From an uncultured Chloroflexia bacterium (lineage in GTDB: Bacteria; Chloroflexota; Limnocylindria; Limnocylindrales; CSP1-4): 64,000 nt of DNA. The translations under genes and the position numbers were made by a program. Location of the stretch: the NCBI GenBank assembly GCA_963828165.1, contig CAWHDR010000001.1, positions 2,048,001 to 2,112,000 on the forward strand, read 5' to 3'. A model generated the notes under the pieces. The model saw only the letters and a list, made by a program, of their open reading frames with translations, had not been told where the DNA came from and made no database searches. Shown here piece after piece: positions 2,208 through 14,372 of this stretch. Every line of letters starts with the position of its first letter. Position 1 is the first letter of the stretch.

Positions 2208-2434
2208 CTGTGTCGGGACCTCGCTAGGTTGTGACCGGTCAGGGGTGCCGTGTCGTGCCGATATCGTCCGGGCGGCATGGGCCGAACGCGCCCGACAAGG
2301 GACACCAGCCGACCCGGACACTCGCCCTCGCCGCTGTGCCGTCGCTGGTCGACCCTCGCCTCGGCCGGATGACGTAGCTGCCTCGGCCGAGAGGCGATGC
2401 CCGCTCGTGGCGGACCCGTCGTATCCTCGCGCCG

Positions 2435-5400
2435 ATGGCCGCTCCCGCCCGTCCGCCCGGTCCGATCGAGCCTGTTCCTACCCCGACCGACCCCGACGGC
2501 GGGGCGGGCGGGATCCACGAGCTGCTGTCGGTCGCCGTCGAAGAGGCGGCCCGGCTCCTCGACGCCGACGGCGCGATGGTCTACCTCATCGACCCGGCCA
2601 CCGGGAACCTGCGTTTCGCGCACGACGCGGGCATCCGCAGCGAACGCAGCCGCGAATGGGTCCGCGGCCTCGAGCTGGCCCCCGGGACCGGGATGTTCGG
2701 GCGAGCGCTGGTCGAGCGTGCCATCGTGGTCACGAACGACTACCAGAACGACCCCTCGTTCCGCCATGCCACCCAGACCGACCGCGTCGTCGAGGACATC
2801 GGCATCCGCTCGATGGTGGTCGCGCCACTCGTTGCGGGCGACCAGGTGTTCGGGGCGATGGGCACCTTCTCCACGCGCGCGGAGGCCTTCGAGCAAGGCG
2901 CAGATCGCCCTCGTCCGCGCGCTGGCCGATCATGCGGCCGCCGCCATGGCGAACATCCGCCTGATCGAGGAACTCGACCGATCTCGGAAGGAGCTCGCGC
3001 AGCGGGCCGAGGTCGAGCGAACGCTGCGCGAGATCAACGCCCGCATCTCGGCCGCGGCGGATCTTTCGAGCGTGCTGCAGCTCGCCGTCGACGAGGCCGC
3101 CCGGCTGCTGGGGGCCGACGGCTCCCGGATCGACCTCGTCGATCCCGGGTCGGGGCTGCTCCGTTGGGCGTATGCGTCGGGCGAGGTCAAGCCGGTCGAC
3201 GAGGCCAGGTATATCGATCCCGAGGAGACTCCCGAGCAGGGCATCGCCGGCCAGGCGATGGCCCAGGCGCGGCCCATCTGGACGGGCGATTACACCGCCG
3301 ACGACGGCTTTCCGCACGGGACCGGCGGCGATGCGTACGTGGCCGAATTCGGCATCCATTCGGTCATGGCCGCGCCGCTGGTCGGGGAGGCCGGACCCTT
3401 CGGTGCCCTGTCGATCTTTTCCACGCGCACCGACGCGTGGCGAGACGCGGATGCCGGCCTGCTCGAGTCGATCGCCGCGCAGGCCGCCATCGCCATCACC
3501 CGGACCCAGCTCCTCGAAGAGCTCGACCGGTCCCGCGGCGCGCTCGCACGCCGGGCTGGGGCGGAACAGGCGCTGCGCGAGATCGCCGCGCGCATCACCG
3601 CGATGCGAGATCCGTCCGAGATCCTCCAGCAGGTCGTGGAGCTCGCGAGCCGCCTGGTCGGCGGACAGGGGGCCATCCTCGACATCCTGGAGCCGGGCAC
3701 CGACAAGCTGCGCTGGGCGTTCGATGACGGACTGCGGCGGCTTTTCAGCGACGAGGAACGCTCGAATCTGTGGATCTCGGTCGGGGAGGGCGCCACCGGG
3801 ATGGCGGTCGCCGAGGACCGCGTCGTGATCGCAGGCGACGACCTGGCCGCGCAGTTCCCGCCAAGCCCCGAGTCGACGCAGTTCTACGACCGGACCGGCT
3901 TCCGCTCGATGATCGCGGCGCCGATCACCGGGGAGCACGGCCCGCTCGGGGTCATCGAGGTCTATGCGGTCGTGGCGGACGCGTTCGACGGCGAGGATGC
4001 GGCGCTCATCCGGGCGCTCGCCGGGCAGGCGGCGATCGCGATCACCAATGCGCGGCTCATCGACGAGCTCGAACGGTCGCGCGAGGAGACGGCCCGGCGC
4101 GCCGACGCCGAGCGGACCCTCCGCGAGATCGCGGTCCGTGTCTCGTCGATCCTCGACCCCGATACGGTCCTGACCCGGATCGTCGCAGAATCCGCACGCC
4201 TTCTTGGCTCCGACGGTGCGCGGATCGACCTGTGGGACGAGGAGCTGGGCTCGCTGCGCTGGGCCTACGCCTCGGGCGACGCGATGTCCGAAGTGCCCGA
4301 ATGGGGGCGGACCGGTGGGCTCAAGCCGCGCCAGGCCGTGGCCGGCCTCGCCTTCGCCGAGCAGAAACCGATCATGACCCAGGACTACCTGGCCGACGAC
4401 CGGTTCGAGACCACGCCCGAGATCGAGGCGTTCGTGCGCAAGGCCGGCATCCGCGCCGTGATCGGCGTGCCGCTGACCGGTGAGGGCGACGCACCGCTCG
4501 GCGTGCTGTCGGTCGTGTCCCGCGAGCCCGGCGCCTACACCGCGACCGAGGTGGAGCTGCTGACCGCCCTCGCGACGCACGCGTCGATCGCGATCACGAA
4601 CGCGAACCTGATGGAGCAGCTCGCCCGCTCCCGCCAGGACATCGAGCGTCGCGCGGAGGCCGAGGCCAGCCTGCGCCAGATCGCGGCCCGGATCACGGCC
4701 CTGCGCGAGCCGGATGAGGTCCTCCAGCACGTCGTCGACGAGGCGCGACGCCTGTTGCGCGCCGACGGTGGCCTGATCGACCAGTACGACCCTGAGAGTG
4801 GCACGCTCCAGTGGGCCTACGACGCCGGACTCGAGCCCGACCAGCGCGAGGCGGTCAAGATGACCAACCTGCGCCTGGGCGAAGGCGTCTCAGGCAAGGC
4901 CGTGGCCGAGGCCCGGGTCATCCACGCCGGGGACTACCTGGCCGGCGATTTCCAGCACGACGCGCTGGCGGATTCGCTCGTCGAGCGGGCCGGTGTCCGT
5001 GACCTGATCGCGGCGCCGATCATCGGAGAAGCCGGCCCCCTGGGCGCGATCGAGGTGCTGAGCCGCCGGCCGAACGCGTTCGACGATCTCGACGCGGCCG
5101 TGCTCGGAAGCCTGGCCGAGCAGGCGGCCATCGCCATCACGAACGCCCGGCTGATCGACGAGCTGGAGCGGTCCCGACTGGCCCTCGCTCGCCGGGCCGA
5201 AACCGAGCGGTCGCTCCGGGACATCACGGCCCGGATCGCGGCGCTGACCGACCCGGATGAGGTCCTCGAGCGGGTCGTCGAGGACGCGAAGCGCCTGCTC
5301 GCGACGGACGGCGCGCACCTGACCCGCATGGCTCCCACCGGCACGTACCTCATCCCGGTCGTGGTGACCGGCGCCAGCGATGACGCGACGCGCGAGTGGC

Positions 5401-7949
5401 TGATGAGCAAGCGGTTCCCGCTTGGAGCGGGGATCAACGGCCTCGCCGCACAGGAGGGAACACCGGTCTGGACCTTCGACTACCTGGCGGACCCGCGCAT
5501 CCCGCACGAACCGGACGACGACTTCACGGCCGAGCGGCTGGGCCTGCGAGGCATGGCGTCGACGCCGTTGCGCGCGCCCGGTGGCGACGTCATCGGCACA
5601 CTCGCCATCTCGACGGCGGAGCCGCGCACCTTCGAGGCCGACGACCTGGACCTCCTCCAGGGCCTCGCGGATCAAGCGGCCATCGCCCTGACGAATTCGA
5701 ACCTCCTCGCCCGACTGACCCAGGAAGAGGCGCGTTTCCGGGGACTGGTCCAGACGACCCCGGACGTGATCTGGCACGCGGATGGGAACGGGACCTTCAC
5801 CTTCATGGCGGACTCGGCGGAGGCCCTCTTCGGCTGGCCGGTCGACGAGATCGTCGGGCAACACTTCGATTTCCTGACCGAACCGTCGTCGATGCCGGTC
5901 GCCCTCGAGGCGTACGGGGCCGTCGGGGCGGAGCCGGGCCGCGTCGAGCGGGTGCCGCTCATCCTGGTCCGTCGCGACGGGTCGAGATTCGCCGCGGAGG
6001 TCACCACCACGGGTGTCTTCGAGGACGGCGTCTGGGTCGGTGCGCAGGGCACGGTCCGGGACGTCAGCGAGCGGGAACGGCTCGAGCGCGAGCTGCGCCA
6101 ATCGGAGGAGCGCTACCGGTTCCTCGTCCAGAACGCTCCGGATCTCGTCTGGTCGATCGGACCGGACGCGCGCATCACGTTCCTGTCGGACGCCGTCGAG
6201 CGGCTGACCGGTTTCCGCCCGGAGGAGCTGCTCGGCGAGCATTTCGGGGCCATCGTCCATCCCTCGTCGCGCGACGTCGCCGAGATCGACTGGACCGCTG
6301 CGATGAACGCGCCGTCCCAGGAGGTCCGCGGGCGGATCAGCCTCCAGCACCGCGACGGGTCGGCGGTCCCGGCCGAGTTCATCGCCGTCGCCGCCCTCGG
6401 CGCTGACGGCGATTTCGCGGGAGCGAACGGGTCCGTCCGCGACATGCGCGAGCGCGACCGGCTCGAGCGCGAGCTGCGCGCATCCGAGGACCGCTACCGG
6501 ACTCTCGCCTCGTCGTCGCCGGACCTCGTGTTCGCCACGGACGCGGAGGGTCGGTACACGTTCCTGTCCGACCGGGCCCAGACGACGCTCGGCTGGGACC
6601 GCACGGCCGCACTCGGCCGTTCGTTCATGGCATACGTGGCTCCGGGCTTCGAGGCGGCCGCCGCCGCGAGCTACCAGGCCGTCCTGGCCGATCCCGAACA
6701 GGTCCATTCGGCGCGGGTGGATTTCCTCGACGGGTCGGGGCAACCGGTCCAGCTCGAGATCAACGTCGTCGGCAAGGTCGAGGACGGCGCGCTGGTCGGG
6801 ATCAACGGGGTCGCGCGTGACGTGTCGGAGCGGGAGCGGCTCGAGCGCGAGCTGATGCGGTCGGAGGAGCGCTATCGGTTCCTCGTGCAGAACTCGCCGG
6901 ACGTCGTCTTCGCGACGAACGTCGAGGGAAACTTCACCTTCATCTCGGCCGCCATCGAGCGGCTCACCGGCCATCCCGCGGCCCAGCTCATCGGGAAGCA
7001 TTTCGGGACGATCGTCGAGTCGGAGGACGCCCAGGTGGCGGGCGGCCGTTGGGAGGCGCTCTCCAGCCACCCGGACCAGGAGGTCCAGACCGCCCAGGTC
7101 CTGCGTGGTCGCGACGGCCGCCATACCCCGGTCGATGTCCGAGCGGTGGGCGTGTGGGTGGACGGGGCGTTCGCAGGCATCCAGGGCGCGGCGCGCGACG
7201 TGAGCGACCAGGTCCGACTGGAGCGGGAGCTACGACGCCAGGCCGGGGAGCTCGCCGCCGGCGAGGAGCGCGCCCACCTCGCACGGGAGCTGCACGATTC
7301 GGTCACCCAGGCGCTGTTCTCCATGACCCTCGTGGCGCGCTCGGTCGAGATGCTGCTGGAAACGGACCCGGACACCGCACGGACGCACCTGACCCAGCTG
7401 CGCGAGCTCCAACGGGAGGCGCTCGCGGAGATGCGCGCCCTCATCTTCGAGCTTCGGCCCGGCAACCTGGAGCAGGATGGCCTGGTCAGGGCGGTGAAGA
7501 CCCACAGCGCCGCGCTCCAGGGCCGGCTCGGGCTCCCGGTCGTCGTGGAGAGCGACCTGGAGGATCGACTGCCGCTGGCGGCCGAGGAGGTCCTGTACCG
7601 CATCGCCCAGGAGGCGCTGCACAACGTCGTGAAGCACGCGGCCGCCCGGCAGGTGCGCGTCGACATCCGCCAGCACGACGGCGGCATTCGGCTGCGGGTG
7701 AAGGACGACGGCAAGGGATTCGATCCGTCGACCGTGCCCGACGGCCACCTGGGGCTCGCGGGCATGCGGGCTCGGACCGAGCGGGTCGGCGGCACGTTCA
7801 CGTGCGTGAGCGAACCCGGGTCGGGGACCGCGATCGAGGTCACGCTCCCTCCGGCCGTGCTCGCGGACCTGCAGGCGGTGGCATCGGCCGGTGAGGTCGC
7901 GGGACGTCCCACCCCACCCGCGGGGACCCCCTCGATCCGCGACGGATGA
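2435..7949 (+). CDS. Soluble multi-sensor histidine kinase, 6 GAF + 4 PAS + HisKA_3 + HATPase (frameshift near 2891)
   Basis: First GAF in ORF 2435 frame, remainder in ORF 2397 frame. Repeated AIAITNARLIDELERSR linkers, RDVSERERLE PAC ends, H-box ARELHDSVTQ, EALHNVVKH, DDGKGF, GLAGM. Confidence 0.9.
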
Positions 7950-8036: not shown

Positions 8037-8444
8037 ATGCCCCCCGCTGACGCCCGGTCCGACGAAGCTGCGCCGCTGCGCATCCTCGTCGTCGATGCCG
8101 ATGACCGGGTTCGCGAGAGCCTGACCGGGTTGCTCGCCATCGGCGAGCGGGTGCTCATCGTCGGCAGCTCCGGCCAGTCCGGAACGGCGCTCGCCCTGGC
8201 GCGCGAGCATCGACCCGACGTCGTGATCGTCGACCCGCGCCTGCCCGAGGTCGACGGTGGACTGAGCTTCATCGCCGGGGTCCGGCAATGGTGTCCGGAC
8301 ACGCGCATCCTCGCCATGAGCTGGTCCGACGCGCTCGAGCGCCAGGCCCTCGACGGCGGAGCCCACGGCTTCGTCCGCAAGACCTTCCGCCCCGCTGAGC
8401 TGATCGCCGCGATCCTCGCGGCCGGCCGGCCCGCCGATGCCTGA
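8037..8444 (+). CDS. Receiver-only response regulator
   Basis: ILVVDAD, VIVDPRLP (phospho-Asp), FVRK motif; no output domain. Confidence 0.85.
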   Translation: MPPADARSDEAAPLRILVVDADDRVRESLTGLLAIGERVLIVGSSGQSGTALALAREHRPDVVIVDPRLPEVDGGLSFIAGVRQWCPDTRILAMSWSDALERQALDGGAHGFVRKTFRPAELIAAILAAGRPADA

Positions 8445-9189
8445 GGAGACCGCTTTGCTAGACTCGACGCTGTCCCCAACGTCCCCGCCAGACACCAGCG
8501 GCGCGAGTGCGCCGGGAGCCGACGTGACAGACGACGCCCCGATCCGTGTGCTCATCGTCGACGACCACGCGGTCGTCCGGACGGGTCTCAAGGTGTTCCT
8601 CGATCTCCAGACGGATATCGAGGTCGTCGGCGAGGCGGCAGATGGCTCCGAGGGCGTGGCGATGGCCCGCCGACTCCAGCCCGATGTCGTGCTGATGGAC
8701 CTGCTGATGCCGAACATGGACGGCATCACCGCGATCGGCCGGATCAAGGCCGAGCACCCCGAGATCGAGATCGTGACGATGACCTCCTTCATCGAAGAGG
8801 AGAAGGTGACCTCGGCCCTGGAGGCGGGAGCGTCGGGCTACGTCCTCAAGGACGCGGAGGCCGAGGAGGTCGCCGCGGCCGTGCGCGCGGCCCATGCGGG
8901 CGAAGTCCACCTCGACCCAGCGGTCGCGCGCCTGCTTGCCCAGCGGATGCGTGACCGCAAGTCCCCCAAGGACGAGCTGGCCGAGCCGTTGACCGATCGC
9001 GAGAAGGACGTGCTCCGCCTGCTGGGGCAGGGGATGTCCAACAAGGACATCGGCTCGACGCTGTTCATCACGGAGCGCACCGCCCGCACGTACGTCTCGA
9101 ACATCCTGGGCAAGCTCGGTCTCGCGTCACGGACGCAGGCGGCGCTGTACGCGGTGGAGCACAAGCTCGTCGACGCGCCCGGCGCCTGA
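8437..9189 (+). CDS. NarL/LuxR family response regulator
   Basis: VLIVDDH, LMDLLMP, YVLKD, C-terminal LTDREKDVL...SNKDIG HTH. True start may be downstream. Confidence 0.95.
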   Translation: MPEETALLDSTLSPTSPPDTSGASAPGADVTDDAPIRVLIVDDHAVVRTGLKVFLDLQTDIEVVGEAADGSEGVAMARRLQPDVVLMDLLMPNMDGITAIGRIKAEHPEIEIVTMTSFIEEEKVTSALEAGASGYVLKDAEAEEVAAAVRAAHAGEVHLDPAVARLLAQRMRDRKSPKDELAEPLTDREKDVLRLLGQGMSNKDIGSTLFITERTARTYVSNILGKLGLASRTQAALYAVEHKLVDAPGA

Positions 9190-9219: not shown

Positions 9220-10497
9220 CTATTCGACGGAGACGACCCGGTACGTGACCGCGCCCCGTGGCGTCTTGACTGCGACCTCGTCGCCCGCGACCGCGCCCAG
9301 TAGTGCCCGCCCGACCGGTGATGCCACCGACAGCCGCCCCGAGGATGGATCGGCCTCGGCCGTGCCCACCAAGGTGTACGTGTCGGTGTCGCCCTCGATC
9401 TCGACGACGATCCGGGAGCCCAGGTCCGCGCCGGCCCCGGCGGTCGGCGCCACGGCGATGACGGCCGAGCGCAACTGCGCCTCGATCGACTGGACGCGGC
9501 CTTCAAGGAACGACTGCTCCTCGCGCGCGGAGCTGTAGTCGGCATTCTCCTTGAGGTCGCCGAGCTCCTTGGCAGCCCGGATCCGGGCGATGACCTCGGG
9601 CCGCTTCACCCCGGTCAGCTCCGCCAGCTCCGCCCGCAGGCGCTCGGCTCCCTCCGCGGTCAGGGTCGCAGCCGGACCGCCGGGCGTGGCCGTCGGTGGG
9701 GCTTCCGGAGGGCGTGCCGCTCCGGGCGACGAGGGGCTCCCACCGCCTCCGGCGCGTGACGATGTCGGCGCGGGCGACCGCGACGGCGTGGCTCGCGGCG
9801 CACGCCGCCGTGGCTCCGGCGGCTCCCCTCGCGCCCCCTCCGCATCGCCGTCCGGGACGACCACGACCCTCGTCACCGGCGCTGCCGGTTCGACCGCCTC
9901 GGGTAGCAGCGACCCGGACAGGCCGCTCGTCTTGCGCTCGCCGGTCGGACGCCGCAGGTTCGCGAATGGCAGGACGACGTCGGGGTCCCGCAGGCCCGCG
10001 CGCTCGCTGGCGGTGACGGTCTCGGCGAAGGCCGCGAGCAGCGCGTCCTCGTATTCCTCCACGGCCTCGGTCGCGGCCCACCACACCCGGCATGACGGCA
10101 ACGCTCGCAAGGTCATGAGCCAGTGGCCGCCGGCGTATGGCCGTCGGTCTCCGAGCGTCGTCCGCGCCATGGCCGCCAGCCGACCGCTGATCGTCGCCCC
10201 GGTCGCGCCGACATAGAGCACGGTCTGGGACGGCAGCCAGAAGGAGGCGAGCCGGGCCGACAGGGCACGCGAGGTCGGCCTTGCGCCGTCGAGCAGGAGG
10301 CCAGGCACGTGCTCGAGCCATTTGCCGACACGCGTGAGCTCGATCGGGGCCGTCGGGAGTGGTGCCGGGAGCTCCACCAGGAAGACGCCCGGGGAACGGC
10401 CGGGCACCGGGCGCCCCCACGGCAGGGGCCCGTCGGGAAGCAGGCCGACCTTGCGCAGCAGGCTCGGCGCGGACAGCGCCTCGTCGTCGTCAGGCAT
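9220..10497 (-). CDS. greA: Transcription elongation factor GreA with N-terminal GIY-YIG-like domain
   Basis: C-terminal GDLKENADY...EQSFLEGR and SVASPVGRALLG. N-terminal PGVFLV...LYVG...RL...E...PFAN. ATG 10497 lies 7 nt after a TACCAT -10. Confidence 0.88.
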   Translation of the reverse strand: MPDDDEALSAPSLLRKVGLLPDGPLPWGRPVPGRSPGVFLVELPAPLPTAPIELTRVGKWLEHVPGLLLDGARPTSRALSARLASFWLPSQTVLYVGATGATISGRLAAMARTTLGDRRPYAGGHWLMTLRALPSCRVWWAATEAVEEYEDALLAAFAETVTASERAGLRDPDVVLPFANLRRPTGERKTSGLSGSLLPEAVEPAAPVTRVVVVPDGDAEGARGEPPEPRRRAPRATPSRSPAPTSSRAGGGGSPSSPGAARPPEAPPTATPGGPAATLTAEGAERLRAELAELTGVKRPEVIARIRAAKELGDLKENADYSSAREEQSFLEGRVQSIEAQLRSAVIAVAPTAGAGADLGSRIVVEIEGDTDTYTLVGTAEADPSSGRLSVASPVGRALLGAVAGDEVAVKTPRGAVTYRVVSVE

Positions 10498-10543: not shown

Positions 10544-11932
10544 ATGGCTGCTGTTCGGCCGCGTCGGACGCGGGTCCGGCGCGCCCTCCTGATCCTCGCC
10601 ACCGTGACGGCGACGAGCGTCATCTCGATCGCACTCGGCCCGCTGCTGACCACTTCGCGGATCCCCGACCCGATCGCGGCCGCGCGGCCGTCGCCGTTGG
10701 CCGAACCGACGGCTCGCGCCGAGGTCGACCGTGGCGTCCGGCCGGCCAGTGCGAAACCCGCGAACCCGATCCCGGCACCACCCGTGGCGGCGCGCCCGGT
10801 CGTGGCAACCATCGGGGTCCGGCCGCCGGAGCTGGCCGGTCTCACGGCGACGGCCGCGACGCGCCGCGCCCTCCAGAAGCGTCTCGACCAGCTGCGCGAG
10901 CGGTATGGGGTCCCCGGGATCTCGGTCACGATGCTCTTCCCCGATGGCAGCTCGTGGGTCGGCGTGAGCGGCCTGGCGAACGTCGGGGCCAAGACGCCCG
11001 TGACCGCGTCCACGTCCTTCGCCATCGCGAGCATCAGCAAGACCTTCACCGCCGCCCTCGTCCTGGCCCTGGCGCAGGACGGGACGATCGACCTCGACGA
11101 GCCGGTGCGGACATACCTGCCCGAGGTGAAGGTCAATGCAAAGATCACGGTCCGCCAGCTGCTCGACCACACCAGCGGGCTGCGCGATTACTTCTTCCAT
11201 CCGGCGATCGACAAGAAGCTGTTGACGGATCGCAGCCGGGTCTGGGATACCGCCGACGCGATGAAGCACGTCGGCAAGGCGTACTTCAAGCCGGGCACCG
11301 GTTGGCACTATTCGAACACCAACTACCTCGTGCTCGGGATGCTCGCCGAGCGGGTCGGCGGGGCGCCCCTGGCGGATCAGGTCCGCGCCCGCTTCCTCGA
11401 GCCGCTGGGACTGCGACACACCTGGTATCAGCCCACCGAGGAGGCCAGCGCCGACGGCGCCCACGGCTACCGGTTCGATTCGACGTCGAAGGACGCTCCT
11501 GCCATCGACCTGTCCGATGGCAGCCCGTTCATGCCATTCACCTCCGTCGTCACCGCAGCGGCCGGCGCCGGAGCCTTCGCGTCCAACTCGACCGATCTCG
11601 TCCGCTGGGTCCGCGCGCTCTACGCCGGCGCGGTGCTGTCCCAGGCGTCGGTCGATGCGATGGTCGGCGACATCAGCCGAACCGCGCCGTACAAGCCCCG
11701 CGTGCCCTACGGTCTGGGCGTCCAGCGCCAGGACATCGACGGGTACCAGTCGCTCGGGCATTCCGGGCGGCTGCTCGGCTTTCGGTCGGTCGTCCGTTGG
11801 TTGCCGGACGAGGACGTTGCGATCGCCGTGGTGAGCAACCAGAGCCGGACCGATCCCGGGATCTTCGCGCGTGCCTTGCTCAGGACCGCCCGGGCCGCTG
11901 GCGCGTGCGTGAACTGCACCAGCCAGCGCTGA
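10544..11932 (+). CDS. Serine hydrolase, beta-lactamase/D-Ala-D-Ala carboxypeptidase family, membrane-anchored or exported
   Basis: SISK (SxxK), YSN, HSG motifs; LLDHTSGL; N-terminal hydrophobic helix. Start uncertain. Confidence 0.9.
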   Translation: MAAVRPRRTRVRRALLILATVTATSVISIALGPLLTTSRIPDPIAAARPSPLAEPTARAEVDRGVRPASAKPANPIPAPPVAARPVVATIGVRPPELAGLTATAATRRALQKRLDQLRERYGVPGISVTMLFPDGSSWVGVSGLANVGAKTPVTASTSFAIASISKTFTAALVLALAQDGTIDLDEPVRTYLPEVKVNAKITVRQLLDHTSGLRDYFFHPAIDKKLLTDRSRVWDTADAMKHVGKAYFKPGTGWHYSNTNYLVLGMLAERVGGAPLADQVRARFLEPLGLRHTWYQPTEEASADGAHGYRFDSTSKDAPAIDLSDGSPFMPFTSVVTAAAGAGAFASNSTDLVRWVRALYAGAVLSQASVDAMVGDISRTAPYKPRVPYGLGVQRQDIDGYQSLGHSGRLLGFRSVVRWLPDEDVAIAVVSNQSRTDPGIFARALLRTARAAGACVNCTSQR

Positions 11933-12047
11933 CGCGCTGCTCGCGTCGTGCGGGCGGTGGGACCATCGCACCCGTCCCGACGGTACGGACGGCTGTTGAC
12001 CTTTGCCATCGGAGCGCGCACGTTGCGGGGTACGTTTCGGGGGAAAC

Positions 12048-12596
12048 ATGATCCAGGTCGATGCCTATACCGTCGGGGGGATGGCCCACGGCACGCTCAC
12101 GCGTGCCGGGCATCTGCGCGAGATCCTCGAGGAGACCGGCGAGCTCGCCCTGCAGAGCGTCCGCTGGTTGCCGCTCGGCGCGTCGGAGGCCCAGGCCGCC
12201 GGCGACCTGACGATCGCCATCGACGACGTCCTCGTGGCTGTCACGAACGACGAATCGACCATCCCGGTCCACGCCAGCTGGCACGCGCTCAGGATCGAAG
12301 TCGGCCCGTATGTCCTGGAAGGTGAGCTGCCGACGCTCCCCGGCTACGACCCCGACCGTGCCCTCGCGCGACCGAACGGCGAGTTCGTGCTCATCCGCGA
12401 ACCGCGCCTTGGTCGGGTGGGTGGCCCCCTCGGGCCGATCGGCCAGGAAGCGCTCGTGAACCGCTACAGCGTCGAGCGGGTCGAGGCGGACATCATGCTC
12501 GGGTTCTTCTTCCCGGGAGCTGCGATGCCCGCCACCAGCGAGACCGACGCGATCGAACGGCGACCGGCCCCGACCCCGGAGACGAGCGCGCCCTGA
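12048..12596 (+). CDS. Hypothetical protein (two similar beta-rich halves, DUF6812-like)
   Basis: GGGGA RBS then ATG; coding-like codon use; internal two-fold similarity seen by eye. Confidence 0.7.
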   Translation: MIQVDAYTVGGMAHGTLTRAGHLREILEETGELALQSVRWLPLGASEAQAAGDLTIAIDDVLVAVTNDESTIPVHASWHALRIEVGPYVLEGELPTLPGYDPDRALARPNGEFVLIREPRLGRVGGPLGPIGQEALVNRYSVERVEADIMLGFFFPGAAMPATSETDAIERRPAPTPETSAP

Positions 12597-12618: not shown

Positions 12619-13884
12619 CTAGCGTGAGCCGCCGGTGCCGGCCCCCGTGCGTCGGCGCACGGGCTTGCGATGCGCGTGGTGCTCTTGCGTCACGCGGGCA
12701 TGGCCGCTGCGCATGCCAAGGGGCCGTGGCTCCGTATCGCGATCCGGCACGAAGCCCTCGGCCACGGTCCACGGGATCGCATGCTTGAGCATCCGCTGCA
12801 CGCCGCGGAGCAGGTCGACCTCATCGATGCACACCAGGCTGATCGCCTCGCCCAGGGCGCCCGCGCGGCCGGTCCGGCCGATGCGGTGGATGTAGTCCTG
12901 CGGGTTCCAGGGCAGCTCGAAATTCACGACGACCGGCAGGTCCTCGATATCGAGGCCACGGGCGGCGACGTCCGTCGCGACGAGCACCCGGATGGCCCCG
13001 GTCTTGAAGCCTTCGAGCGCACGGGTCCGCTCCGGCTGCGACCGGTCGCTGTGGATGGCGACGGCGTCGATGCCTTCCCGGTCCAGGCGCGTCGCGAGCC
13101 GGGAGGCAGCGAGCTTCGTGCGGGTGAAGACCAGGACCTGGTGCAGGTCGCCTGACCGGATGAGATGGGCGAGGAGCGCCTCCTTGCGGTCGCGGTCCAC
13201 CGGATAGACGAGCTGGCGGATGCCCTCGACCGTGGTGTTGCGCGGCGCCACCTCGACCGTCTCGGGGTCGCGCAGGATCGTCCCGGACAGGCGCCGGATG
13301 TCGTCGGAGAAGGTCGCTGAGAACATGAGGTTCTGGCGACGCTTCGGGAGGAGCTCGATGATGCGCTGGATGTCCGGCAGGAAGCCCATGTCGAGCATCC
13401 GGTCGGCCTCGTCGAGGACCAGGATCTCGACCTGACCGAGGTTCGCGACCTTCTGTCCCACGAGGTCGAGCAGGCGACCCGGGGTCGCGACGAGGATCTC
13501 GACCCCCGCGCGCAGGGCCTTGATCTGCGGGTCCATGGGGATGCCGCCGTACACGACGGTCGAACGCAACGGCACGGTCCGGCCGTAGGTCCGGACGCTC
13601 TCATCGACCTGCATCGCGAGCTCGCGGGTCGGCACGAGGATGAGCGAGCGAACCGGGTGACGGGCCGGCGAGAACGACGTATTGGCCTGCGGCCGGAGTC
13701 GATCAAGGATCGGCAGCGTGAACGCCGCGGTCTTGCCGGTACCGGTCTGGGCCGCCGCGAGGACGTCACGGCCGGCGAGTACGAGGGGGATGGCGGCCGC
13801 CTGCACCGGTGTGGGTGTGGTGTAGCCCTCTTCGGTGACGGTCTTGAGTAGATCGGCCGACAGGCCGAGTGAGTCGAAGGTCAA
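12619..13884 (-). CDS. DEAD-box RNA helicase (RhlE-like)
   Basis: AQTGTGKT, PTRELA, TPGRL, DEAD, SAT, ARGLD, HRIGRTGR; TTG start with GGAG RBS. Confidence 0.95.
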   Translation of the reverse strand: MTFDSLGLSADLLKTVTEEGYTTPTPVQAAAIPLVLAGRDVLAAAQTGTGKTAAFTLPILDRLRPQANTSFSPARHPVRSLILVPTRELAMQVDESVRTYGRTVPLRSTVVYGGIPMDPQIKALRAGVEILVATPGRLLDLVGQKVANLGQVEILVLDEADRMLDMGFLPDIQRIIELLPKRRQNLMFSATFSDDIRRLSGTILRDPETVEVAPRNTTVEGIRQLVYPVDRDRKEALLAHLIRSGDLHQVLVFTRTKLAASRLATRLDREGIDAVAIHSDRSQPERTRALEGFKTGAIRVLVATDVAARGLDIEDLPVVVNFELPWNPQDYIHRIGRTGRAGALGEAISLVCIDEVDLLRGVQRMLKHAIPWTVAEGFVPDRDTEPRPLGMRSGHARVTQEHHAHRKPVRRRTGAGTGGSR

Positions 13885-14372
13885 GCGTGGCTCCTGCAGG
13901 GACCCTGGCCGTCGCGGGCGGGACTCCGCGGGAGCGCGACGGTGGCGTGGGACGGCGCGCCAGAACGCGGCCGCACGTGGCCCGCCCGGAGCATAGCCGA
14001 AATCGGTCGCATCGGGACTTCCCGGCTGTTGAAAAGCGGCCCGGTGCGCACCGGTACGACTGGTGCAATGACGGGGGCTTGCTTGCACTGGCATACTTTG
14101 GTCGCAGCCCCCCAGGCTTGCAGACACCAGACAGACAGGCATCAACCAAAGACTCGCCGCCCCAACGGCAGGACCCTGTCGATCACGTCGGGTGCTCTTC
14201 ACTCGACGGCCCGGTTCGGCTCACCCGGACCGGCTCAACCCTTCGCTCGCGCTCAGCGCGATCGATGGGCGTCCGTCGCTCGCGCGCTCGCGAACTTCCT
14301 GCCACACGGCGGCACCACCCCACCGTCACCGCGTCCCCCCACGCGGTGTTCTGGAAGAAGGAGGCAGGAATC

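Follow-up and report, generated by a model that had tools for sequence, protein, structure and literature searches.

A 64,000-nucleotide stretch of DNA from an uncultured Chloroflexia bacterium of the order Limnocylindrales (assembly GCA_963828165.1, contig CAWHDR010000001.1, positions 2,048,001 to 2,112,000; hereafter the window) carries at 9220..10497, on the minus strand, a gene whose 425-residue product joins an N-terminal domain, very probably of the GIY-YIG nuclease fold, to a complete Gre transcript cleavage factor. In one family of Limnocylindrales (Chloroflexota) the gene provides a specialized second Gre factor; it is a vertically conserved core gene there, present in every sampled genome. 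Gre factors are among the best-studied bacterial transcription regulators and are regarded as small self-contained proteins; they act through the secondary channel of RNA polymerase, and the same mechanism is predicted for the fusion protein. For the genus of the window, we consider it somewhat probable that the protein is a working Gre factor tethered to a domesticated nucleic-acid-binding module that probably does not cut.

The minus-strand frame of 425 codons, closed by a stop codon at 9220-9222, is free of internal stops and remains open further upstream to 11172, which would give 650 residues. Homology to relatives begins only at residues 1-10 of the 425-residue form. If translation began at the alternative ATG at 10545, further upstream, the gene would overlap head-to-head with a divergent β-lactamase-family gene whose ATG is at 10544, the two start codons sharing one CATG. 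On these grounds 10497 is the more likely start, and residue numbers throughout refer to the 425-residue form, which orthologs match from residues 1-10 through 425. All parts of the gene lie on the minus strand. The GIY-YIG–fold domain, delimited by an AlphaFold 2 (AF2) model, structural matches and hhalign comparison, occupies residues 1-195 (9913..10497; structured at about 10-182), and its key residues are G37-V38-F39, Y95-V96-G97, R106, E150 and N180. Between its first (GVF) and second (YVG) strands lies an insert of about 45-50 residues with two helices in the predicted secondary structure (residues 42-93; 10219..10374). A low-complexity linker follows (residues 196-277; 9667..9912), and the protein ends with the Gre N-terminal coiled-coil domain (residues 279-347; 9457..9663), which bears the acidic tip GDLKENADY (residues 313-321; nucleotides 9535-9561), and the Gre C-terminal globular domain (residues 358-425; 9223..9426). 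The motifs quoted in a preliminary description of the window, made from its sequence alone, were all recovered, namely GVFLV at 37-41, LYVG at 94-97, SGRL at 104-107 with R106, EEYED at 147-151, LPFAN at 176-180 and the GDLKENADY tip.

The linker is recognized by its composition, which over about 80 residues is 23% proline, 18% alanine, 12% glycine, 11% arginine and 10% serine, and its start is predicted to be disordered, with values of the predicted local distance difference test (pLDDT) below 50 past residue 183 of the AF2 model. Across 192 fused proteins the linker has a median length of 72 residues and is similarly composed (alanine 21%, proline 19%, arginine 12.5%).

The same description had claimed a complete Gre factor with an intact acidic tip at the C terminus, and domain searches bear this out. 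PF03449 matched residues 279-347 (E 3e-24; 85.5 bits, cut-off 24.5) and PF01272 matched residues 358-425 (E 6.7e-20; 71.3 bits, cut-off 26.9). The subfamily-level model TIGR01462 was passed with 145.5 bits (cut-off 139), and the best GreA equivalog model, NF001263, reached 143.9 bits against its cut-off of 145. The aspartate and glutamate of the GDLxENxxY tip have a catalytic role known from Escherichia coli GreA. Among 196 N-domain proteins with at least 180 residues downstream, 190 contained the tip motif G[DE]LxENxx[YFH], and the six exceptions look frameshifted, deleted or unrelated. Judged from these features, the Gre half looks fully functional.

A second, stand-alone GreA of 157 residues is encoded in the same genome and in same-genus relatives; it is 46-47% identical to the fused Gre part, and stand-alone greA was also found in 10 of 12 other genomes of the family. 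To place the two forms, an unrooted maximum-likelihood tree was built from 37 sequences, comprising 16 fused Gre domains and 21 stand-alone GreAs, with nine near-duplicate rows of the 30 fetched left out. The stand-alone GreAs of the family of the window (f1) and of two other families of the same class (f3 and f4) formed one clade (support 99/97) that mirrors taxonomy. The fused Gre domains fell outside this clade on longer branches (0.29-1.0 versus 0.03-0.29), from which it follows that the fused Gre half was not copied recently from the resident greA. It may stem either from an old duplication with acceleration or from a transfer.

Neither Pfam nor NCBIfam matched residues 1-277 of the window protein. 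The N-domain was examined by modeling and profile comparison. An AF2 model built on 18 sequences of the genus (pLDDT 78.4, predicted template modeling score 0.79) was compared with 48,161 representative chains of the PDB using VIA-align 2, counting chains with Z of at least 2. Eleven chains were found, the first seven of which were all GIY-YIG proteins: T4 endonuclease II (EndoII; Z 7.2, 105 residues aligned, root-mean-square deviation 2.8), the UvrC N-domain (Z 6.2, 80/89 aligned, deviation 2.2), a plant Grx N-domain (Z 5.8), Eco29kI (Z 4.9), I-TevI (Z 4.5), Hpy188I (Z 4.4) and PD-T4-3 (Z 3.7). A second, independent model of the stand-alone relative P0193 (43% identity, pLDDT 92) placed the same seven GIY-YIG proteins on top of 10 chains, with Z of 7.1 for EndoII and 6.0 for UvrC. 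With Foldseek, the ten best rows for both models were Eco29kI, with weak E-values of 0.035-0.39, and in searches of the PDB and BFVD no match reached E ≤ 0.001, the top rows being Eco29kI, endonuclease II and a GIY-YIG protein.

For profile comparison, we prepared a genus-only alignment (A1), a mixed alignment (A2) and an alignment of 20 stand-alone members (A3), and aligned them with hhalign to 25 UvrC N termini from related genomes. A3 gave a probability of 88.7% (E 2.6e-6, 82 columns) and A2 86.7%. The motifs follow the same order as in UvrC: Y95 and G97 align with the UvrC YVG motif, R106 with its arginine and E150, invariant in A1 and A2, with its glutamate. N180 is placed on the UvrC asparagine by the alignment of A1 to UvrC, of 1% probability, and by the end of the structural alignment (model residue 181 with UvrC residue 89). 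The preliminary description had assigned metal binding to the EEYED run; a glutamate is indeed found there, but the family-invariant one is E150 alone and not the whole acidic run. In the 20 stand-alone members, matches to models of the Pfam GIY-YIG clan stayed below threshold (GIY_YIG_2 in seven, GIY-YIG in three, T5orf172 and GIY_YIG_domain in one each), the best being GIY_YIG_2 (E 0.003; 18 bits, cut-off 22.4). As leads only, a sequence search of solved structures with A3 gave UvrC as best match (E 0.35 over 21 residues), and in the ESM Atlas 26 of 30 matches were unnamed clusters while the named ones were all GIY-YIG with a score of 0.91; the structure-sequence search with A1 returned a single match, to an unrelated small protein (E 0.5).

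Several of these results count against the assignment. The structural Z-scores are all below 8, and such values alone can reflect a common arrangement, as the tool warns; the genus-only profile A1 aligned to UvrC with a probability of only 1%; and no Pfam GIY-YIG model was above threshold in the window protein or the stand-alone relatives. Despite the modest Z-scores and the lack of a passing curated model, we regard the assignment as firm, because two models agree, the ranking is clean and the profile alignment points the same way. The GIY-YIG fold is thus highly probable, and the GIY-YIG–like N-domain proposed earlier from the motifs is borne out by structure search, profile comparison and motif order. 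The domain differs from classical members in two places. The first is the insert, of about 45 residues judging from the 56 residues between Phe39 and Tyr95 compared with 11 between both tyrosines in the UvrC of this genome; the second is the stretch from the glutamate to the asparagine, which is longer by about 15 residues. Within the insert, E53, T55, R56, G58, K59, W60, E62, D70, G71, R73, R82 and W87 are invariant in the genus.

We next considered how far the fusion extends among relatives. An N-domain profile was run against 201 genomes of the class that were at least 80% complete, and it matched 62/62 genomes of the family of the window (f1, with 18 genera), compared with 0/7, 0/61, 1/69 and 0/1 in four other families of the class (f2, f3, f4 and f5, respectively). 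A genus-level survey took one genome for each of the 17 other genera of f1 and added the window genome. The Gre tip followed the N-domain in the same frame in 15 of the 17 other genera, and thus in 16 of 18 with the window genus. In one of the remaining two, g4, the N-domain carries a different short C-terminal tail and the genome has a single GreA match; in the other, g8, the N-domain copy is cut by a contig end. Within the genus of the window, 16 of 24 other genomes encode an intact full-length ortholog with 57-90% identity, three have it in pieces or with stops, and the five from which it is absent are only 59-77% complete. Among the 120 best-matching metagenome proteins, 115 carried Gre Pfam domains, the rest being four short or partial proteins and one with PF01272 only. 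The f1 records considered here derive from soil and other environmental metagenomes.

These data also dispose of an artifactual origin, in which an assembly or sequencing error joined two genes or an open reading frame was over-extended in GC-rich DNA. The G+C content of the DNA is 72-76%, a range in which long spurious open reading frames are common, and several database entries are frameshifted fragments. Against this, the same architecture recurs in the 16 of 24 same-genus genomes, in the 16 of 18 genera and in the 115 metagenome proteins, which come from several sources. Moreover, an 851-nucleotide contig from an unrelated soil sequencing run (X3) spans 9512-10362 with 84 substitutions and no gaps (about 90% identity) and joins Gre, linker and N-domain in frame. 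Both halves are also under purifying selection (see below). A join of two genes by sequencing error is excluded by the genomes, the genera and this contig, and an artifact of any kind is so improbable that we count it as refuted; the fusion is real and conserved in relatives, side by side with the stand-alone greA that the preliminary description had proposed to look for. In three of four sequencing runs compared, parts of the stretch were without cover, and the sequencing runs listed as containing it included no RNA run, with shares all at or below 0.16.

Whether the N-domain cuts nucleic acid depends on its catalytic residues. In the study of Hpy188I by Sokolowska et al. (PMC3045582), the tyrosine of the GIY motif serves as general base and is contacted by a second tyrosine or a histidine, the YIG tyrosine and the arginine hold the phosphate and water, and the glutamate anchors the metal. 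At the corresponding and nearby positions the window protein has F39, Y95, R106, M110, A111, Y121, H125, M128, E150 and N180. Phe39 is found in at least 90% of the 18 sequences of the window genus and N180 in 15 of the 18. In 63 stand-alone relatives the canonical set is almost always kept (Y39 in 62, Y95 in 61, R106 in 63, H121 in 61, K128 in 62, E150 in 61 and N180 in 61), and position 110 is tyrosine or phenylalanine in 58 and position 111 tyrosine in 52; position 110/111 aligns with the UvrC tyrosine four residues after the arginine, where the window protein has Met110 and Ala111. The 16 representatives of fused genera, by comparison, keep R106 in all 16, N180 in 12, E150 in 11, Y39 in 10, H121 in nine and K128 in eight. 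All seven catalytic positions are kept in four of them (g10, g11, g14 and g15), and E150 is lost in g6, g7, g12, g13 and g18. In a larger set of 185 fused sequences, which is dominated by close relatives so that the genus-level sample is the fairer one, position 39 is phenylalanine in 150 and tyrosine in 32, R106 is kept in 181, E150 in 178 and N180 in 167, and Gly37 and Gly97 are also kept in most.

The domain as a whole is clearly maintained under purifying selection, as judged from substitution rates. Relative to the closest relative, the ratio of nonsynonymous to synonymous substitution rates (dN/dS) is 0.09 for the N-domain and 0.11 for the Gre part, and 44 columns of the N-domain are invariant within the genus; in more distant pairs, where dS is saturating, dN of the linker is about twice that of the flanking domains. 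The patchy losses of catalytic residues, lineage by lineage, indicate that selection is not acting to preserve catalysis over the family as a whole.

On the reading that we favor, the Gre part would dock in the secondary channel of RNA polymerase and stimulate transcript cleavage like any GreA, and the N-domain of the window genus would be a domesticated nuclease that has lost the canonical way of cutting, because the general-base tyrosine is Phe39, the tyrosine four residues after the arginine is Met110, and the near-invariant histidine and lysine are Tyr121 and Met128. The domain keeps the phosphate- and metal-binding residues Tyr95, Arg106, Glu150 and Asn180, and this retention makes a tethered nucleic-acid-binding module the most likely role. 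The module could keep the Gre factor on DNA, or on the DNA or RNA of stalled complexes, or direct it there, and the flexible arginine-rich linker, of 40-100 residues, would present the former endonuclease domain. By analogy, the window protein can be seen as a natural counterpart of the laboratory tyrosine-to-phenylalanine variant of Eco29kI, Y49F, which is inactive according to the titles of its PDB entries. The caveat of the preliminary description, that a domain with phenylalanine at the GIY tyrosine position may bind but not cut, fits the data from three sides: the general-base role reported for Hpy188I, the inactive Eco29kI variant and the tyrosine of 62 of the 63 stand-alone forms. The ancestral fusion probably had an active nuclease, as the complete catalytic set persists in four of the sampled genera, and sister genera with intact sites may still cut.

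It is possible, though we think it rather unlikely, that the N-domain is still an active nuclease, which GreA tethers to backtracked or stalled RNA polymerase and which acts at the stall site by incising DNA or by cutting RNA or R-loops. The classical GIY-YIG mechanism would then operate in the four of the 16 fused genera that have the canonical set, and the window genus could use a rewired site, for example with His125 or Tyr149 as general base and E147 and E148 aiding metal binding. Two observations speak for this and weigh against a loss of cutting. The window protein and most fused forms retain R106, E150, N180, Gly37 and Gly97, together with Tyr95 in the window protein, and a remnant with a structural role alone would not be expected to keep so much. 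In addition, Y149, E147, E148 and D151 are conserved at 0.94 in fused forms only, beside the canonical glutamate, and His125 is kept in 160/185 fused compared with 46/63 stand-alone sequences; from the alignments, these newly conserved residues could be a rewired active site. GIY-YIG sites also tolerate replacement of a motif tyrosine, as Hpy188I works with a lysine in place of the YIG tyrosine (PMC3045582). The rival must nevertheless accommodate the phenylalanine at the general-base position in the window genus and the inactivity of Eco29kI Y49F. The loss of the glutamate in five and of Y39 in six of the 16 fused genera is a patchwork typical of relaxed catalytic constraint. Furthermore, a DNase tethered to RNA polymerase would be hazardous if unregulated, and no inhibitor or immunity gene was seen next to the fusion gene.

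A third reading, which we consider improbable, takes the N-domain as a protein-interaction or regulatory module that might dock on RNA polymerase, on another factor or, in auto-inhibition, on the Gre domain itself, with nucleic-acid binding irrelevant. A surface conserved in fused forms only would suit such a role: it comprises E42, R137, W139, W140, T143, E147, E148, Y149 and D151, whose conservation of 0.88-1.0 is confined to fused genera, and includes the acidic EEY-D patch, on which the arginine-rich linker could fold back, and the canonical glutamate is dispensable in five of 16 genera while its neighbors stay. This reading sits poorly with Arg106, which is present in all genus representatives and nearly all fused sequences and whose role in GIY-YIG enzymes is the positioning of phosphate and water (PMC3045582).

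In order to define the wider family of the N-domain, an exhaustive profile search of 1.84 billion representatives was performed and gave 970 clusters (50% identity) at E ≤ 0.001. PHROGs and PADLOC contained no model matching the N-domain or four of its relatives, and the domain belongs to a GIY-YIG subfamily without a Pfam, NCBIfam, PHROGs or PADLOC model. Besides the Gre fusions, three forms were seen, namely a stand-alone form of about 200 residues, a form of about 325 residues in Actinomycetota and a Limnocylindrales form of about 280-340 residues with a different tail; the extra tails of the latter two had no Pfam match. The stand-alone forms have a scattered distribution among GTDB species genomes and occur in many phyla, including Bacillota, Bacteroidota, Pseudomonadota, Planctomycetota and Actinomycetota, and in one Methanoregula. 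Members of about 200 residues at loci L024, L025, L026 and L029 (Syntrophomonas, other Bacillota and one Deltaproteobacteria metagenome-assembled genome) lie in prophages, within the head-morphogenesis block, where the gene for the large terminase subunit precedes them and those for the portal and a ClpP-like protease follow. The terminase/portal block is a typical place for free-standing homing endonucleases. The relatives of about 325 residues, with an extra C-terminal domain, occur in the Arthrobacter group and Solirubrobacterales (L063, L067-L070, L072, L082, L087 and L100). Those of the Arthrobacter group are flanked on one side by a type IV methyl-directed restriction enzyme of the PLD-helicase-DUF3427 kind (PADLOC, 1124.8 bits) and on the other by a SIR2/ThsA-like gene, a setting that is a defense island. 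At L091 (1920-5945), a relative adjoins a gene for a class II ribonucleotide reductase, into which an intein carrying a LAGLIDADG domain is inserted. The alternative Limnocylindrales form (L043, L044, L045, L050, L093, L128 and L146) consists of the N-domain and a tail of about 100-140 residues ending like GRW.I.C, with no Pfam match for the tail of L043, and in genus g4 it seems to replace the Gre fusion. No universal neighbor of the stand-alone relatives was found, synteny being clade-specific only; their contexts are those of mobile or defense nucleases.

Residues 278-425 resemble canonical GreA/GreB (PF03449 plus PF01272) in both domains, in the GDLKENADY tip and in a TIGR01462 score above cut-off, but the fusion protein has about 277 extra N-terminal residues and is a second copy beside the 157-residue stand-alone GreA. 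The N-domain shares with the GIY-YIG superfamily (UvrC, T4 endonuclease II, I-TevI, Eco29kI and Hpy188I) the fold and the order of GIY strand, YIG strand, arginine helix, glutamate and asparagine, and departs from it in the two extra segments described above, in phenylalanine for the GIY tyrosine and in methionine four residues after the arginine. Two NCBIfam models describe a C-terminal Gre module on a longer protein, NF004969 (transcript cleavage factor/unknown domain fusion protein) and NF011309 (a GreA model of 906 positions). The fusion protein scored 44 against a cut-off of 697 and 75.3 against a cut-off of 714, respectively; these are weak matches within the Gre part, and the N-terminal parts are unmatched. 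A search of the main texts in one library of papers gave no paper joining GreA with GIY-YIG and none joining Limnocylindria with a transcription elongation factor; the one match that combined a Gre factor with GIY-YIG was an unrelated Salmonella paper.

To judge from the papers searched, the GreA/GIY-YIG domain architecture is new, and the GIY-YIG subfamily is unannotated. The nearest published architecture is that of the counter-invader proteins of Kaur, Iyer, Burroughs and Aravind (eLife 2021, PMC8195603), composed of an effector, TPR, GreA/B-C and PIN, with 13 alternative effectors including REase and HNH. Both systems have a Gre-family module predicted to engage RNA polymerase and fused to nuclease-type effectors. 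The proteins of Kaur et al. are described as having only the C-terminal Gre domain, plus TPR and PIN, and as strain-variable and read as defense genes, whereas in the fusion protein the Gre factor is complete, catalytic tip included, and accompanied by a GIY-YIG domain, and the gene belongs to the vertically conserved core.

The joining of a complete Gre factor to a nuclease-fold domain suggests an unrecognized coupling of the polymerase secondary channel to DNA or RNA handling. The genera with intact and with lost active sites, in all of which the fold is under selection, provide a natural experiment that separates catalytic from tethering roles. In addition, the analysis defines a subfamily of about 970 clusters that occurs in prophages and defense islands.

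The neighborhood of the fusion gene was analyzed in the window and at 17 loci with the fusion, drawn from lineages that share only 43-60% identity between their fusion proteins. In the window, the fusion gene is convergent with a LuxR-type response regulator gene (8437-9189) and divergent from the β-lactamase-family serine hydrolase gene (10322/10544-11932, plus strand; PF00144, 1e-66), which lies head-to-head with it and has its likely ATG at 10544. This gene and a 197-residue open reading frame without any Pfam match (12003-12596, plus strand), both on the opposite strand, separate the fusion gene from a DEAD-box RNA helicase gene (12619..14202, minus strand; Pfam DEAD 3.2e-47, Helicase_C 5.4e-31). 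A DEAD-box RNA helicase gene lies upstream on the same strand in 15 of the 17 fused loci and is directly adjacent in one lineage (seven loci, 74-86% mutually identical, for example L031, L033, L035, L039, L040 and L046). Complex prediction of the N-domain with the neighboring helicase gave a score of 0.01 against a mark of 0.32, which speaks neither for nor against binding.

In the L031 lineage, the fusion gene is followed on the same strand, after a gap of 5 nucleotides, by genes for a calcineurin-like phosphoesterase (7262-8539 of L031) and an AAA_27/SMC-type ATPase (8547-11360 of L031). The pair resembles Mre11/SbcD plus SbcC, or YhaO/YhaN, and is also found at L032, L033, L035, L039, L040 and L046; the fusion proteins of this lineage keep Y39, Y95, R106, H121, K128, E150 and N180. 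A DNA-end-processing pair at this position is a further point for an active nuclease. In the window genome no SbcCD-like genes adjoin the fusion gene, and the nearest pair lies about 330 kb away. The helicase in 15 of 17 loci and the SbcCD-like genes in one lineage are the only context bearing on the role in transcription-coupled repair or R-loop processing proposed in the preliminary description; we take them as hints, and the analysis neither supports nor refutes that role.

A more specific proposal can be put forward, which we regard as unlikely. In the four of 16 genera with the full catalytic set, Gre would deliver an active endonuclease to backtracked or stalled complexes, where it would incise the template or an R-loop, and the protein of the window genus would be a binding-only sensor. 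If true, this would be a nuclease of a new kind, coupled to RNA polymerase, and a form of transcription-coupled repair or conflict resolution independent of Mfd and UvrC, and the DEAD-box helicase and, in one lineage, the SbcCD-like end-processing genes would possibly cooperate with it.

Elsewhere in the window, an open reading frame of 1850 residues on the plus strand (2397-7949) contains, judging from its translation only, repeated modules that each end in a similar motif (AIAITNARLIDELERSR...) and a histidine-kinase-like C terminus. It is followed by two response-regulator genes checked against Pfam, one at 8037-8444 and the other the gene at 8437-9189 that converges with the fusion gene.

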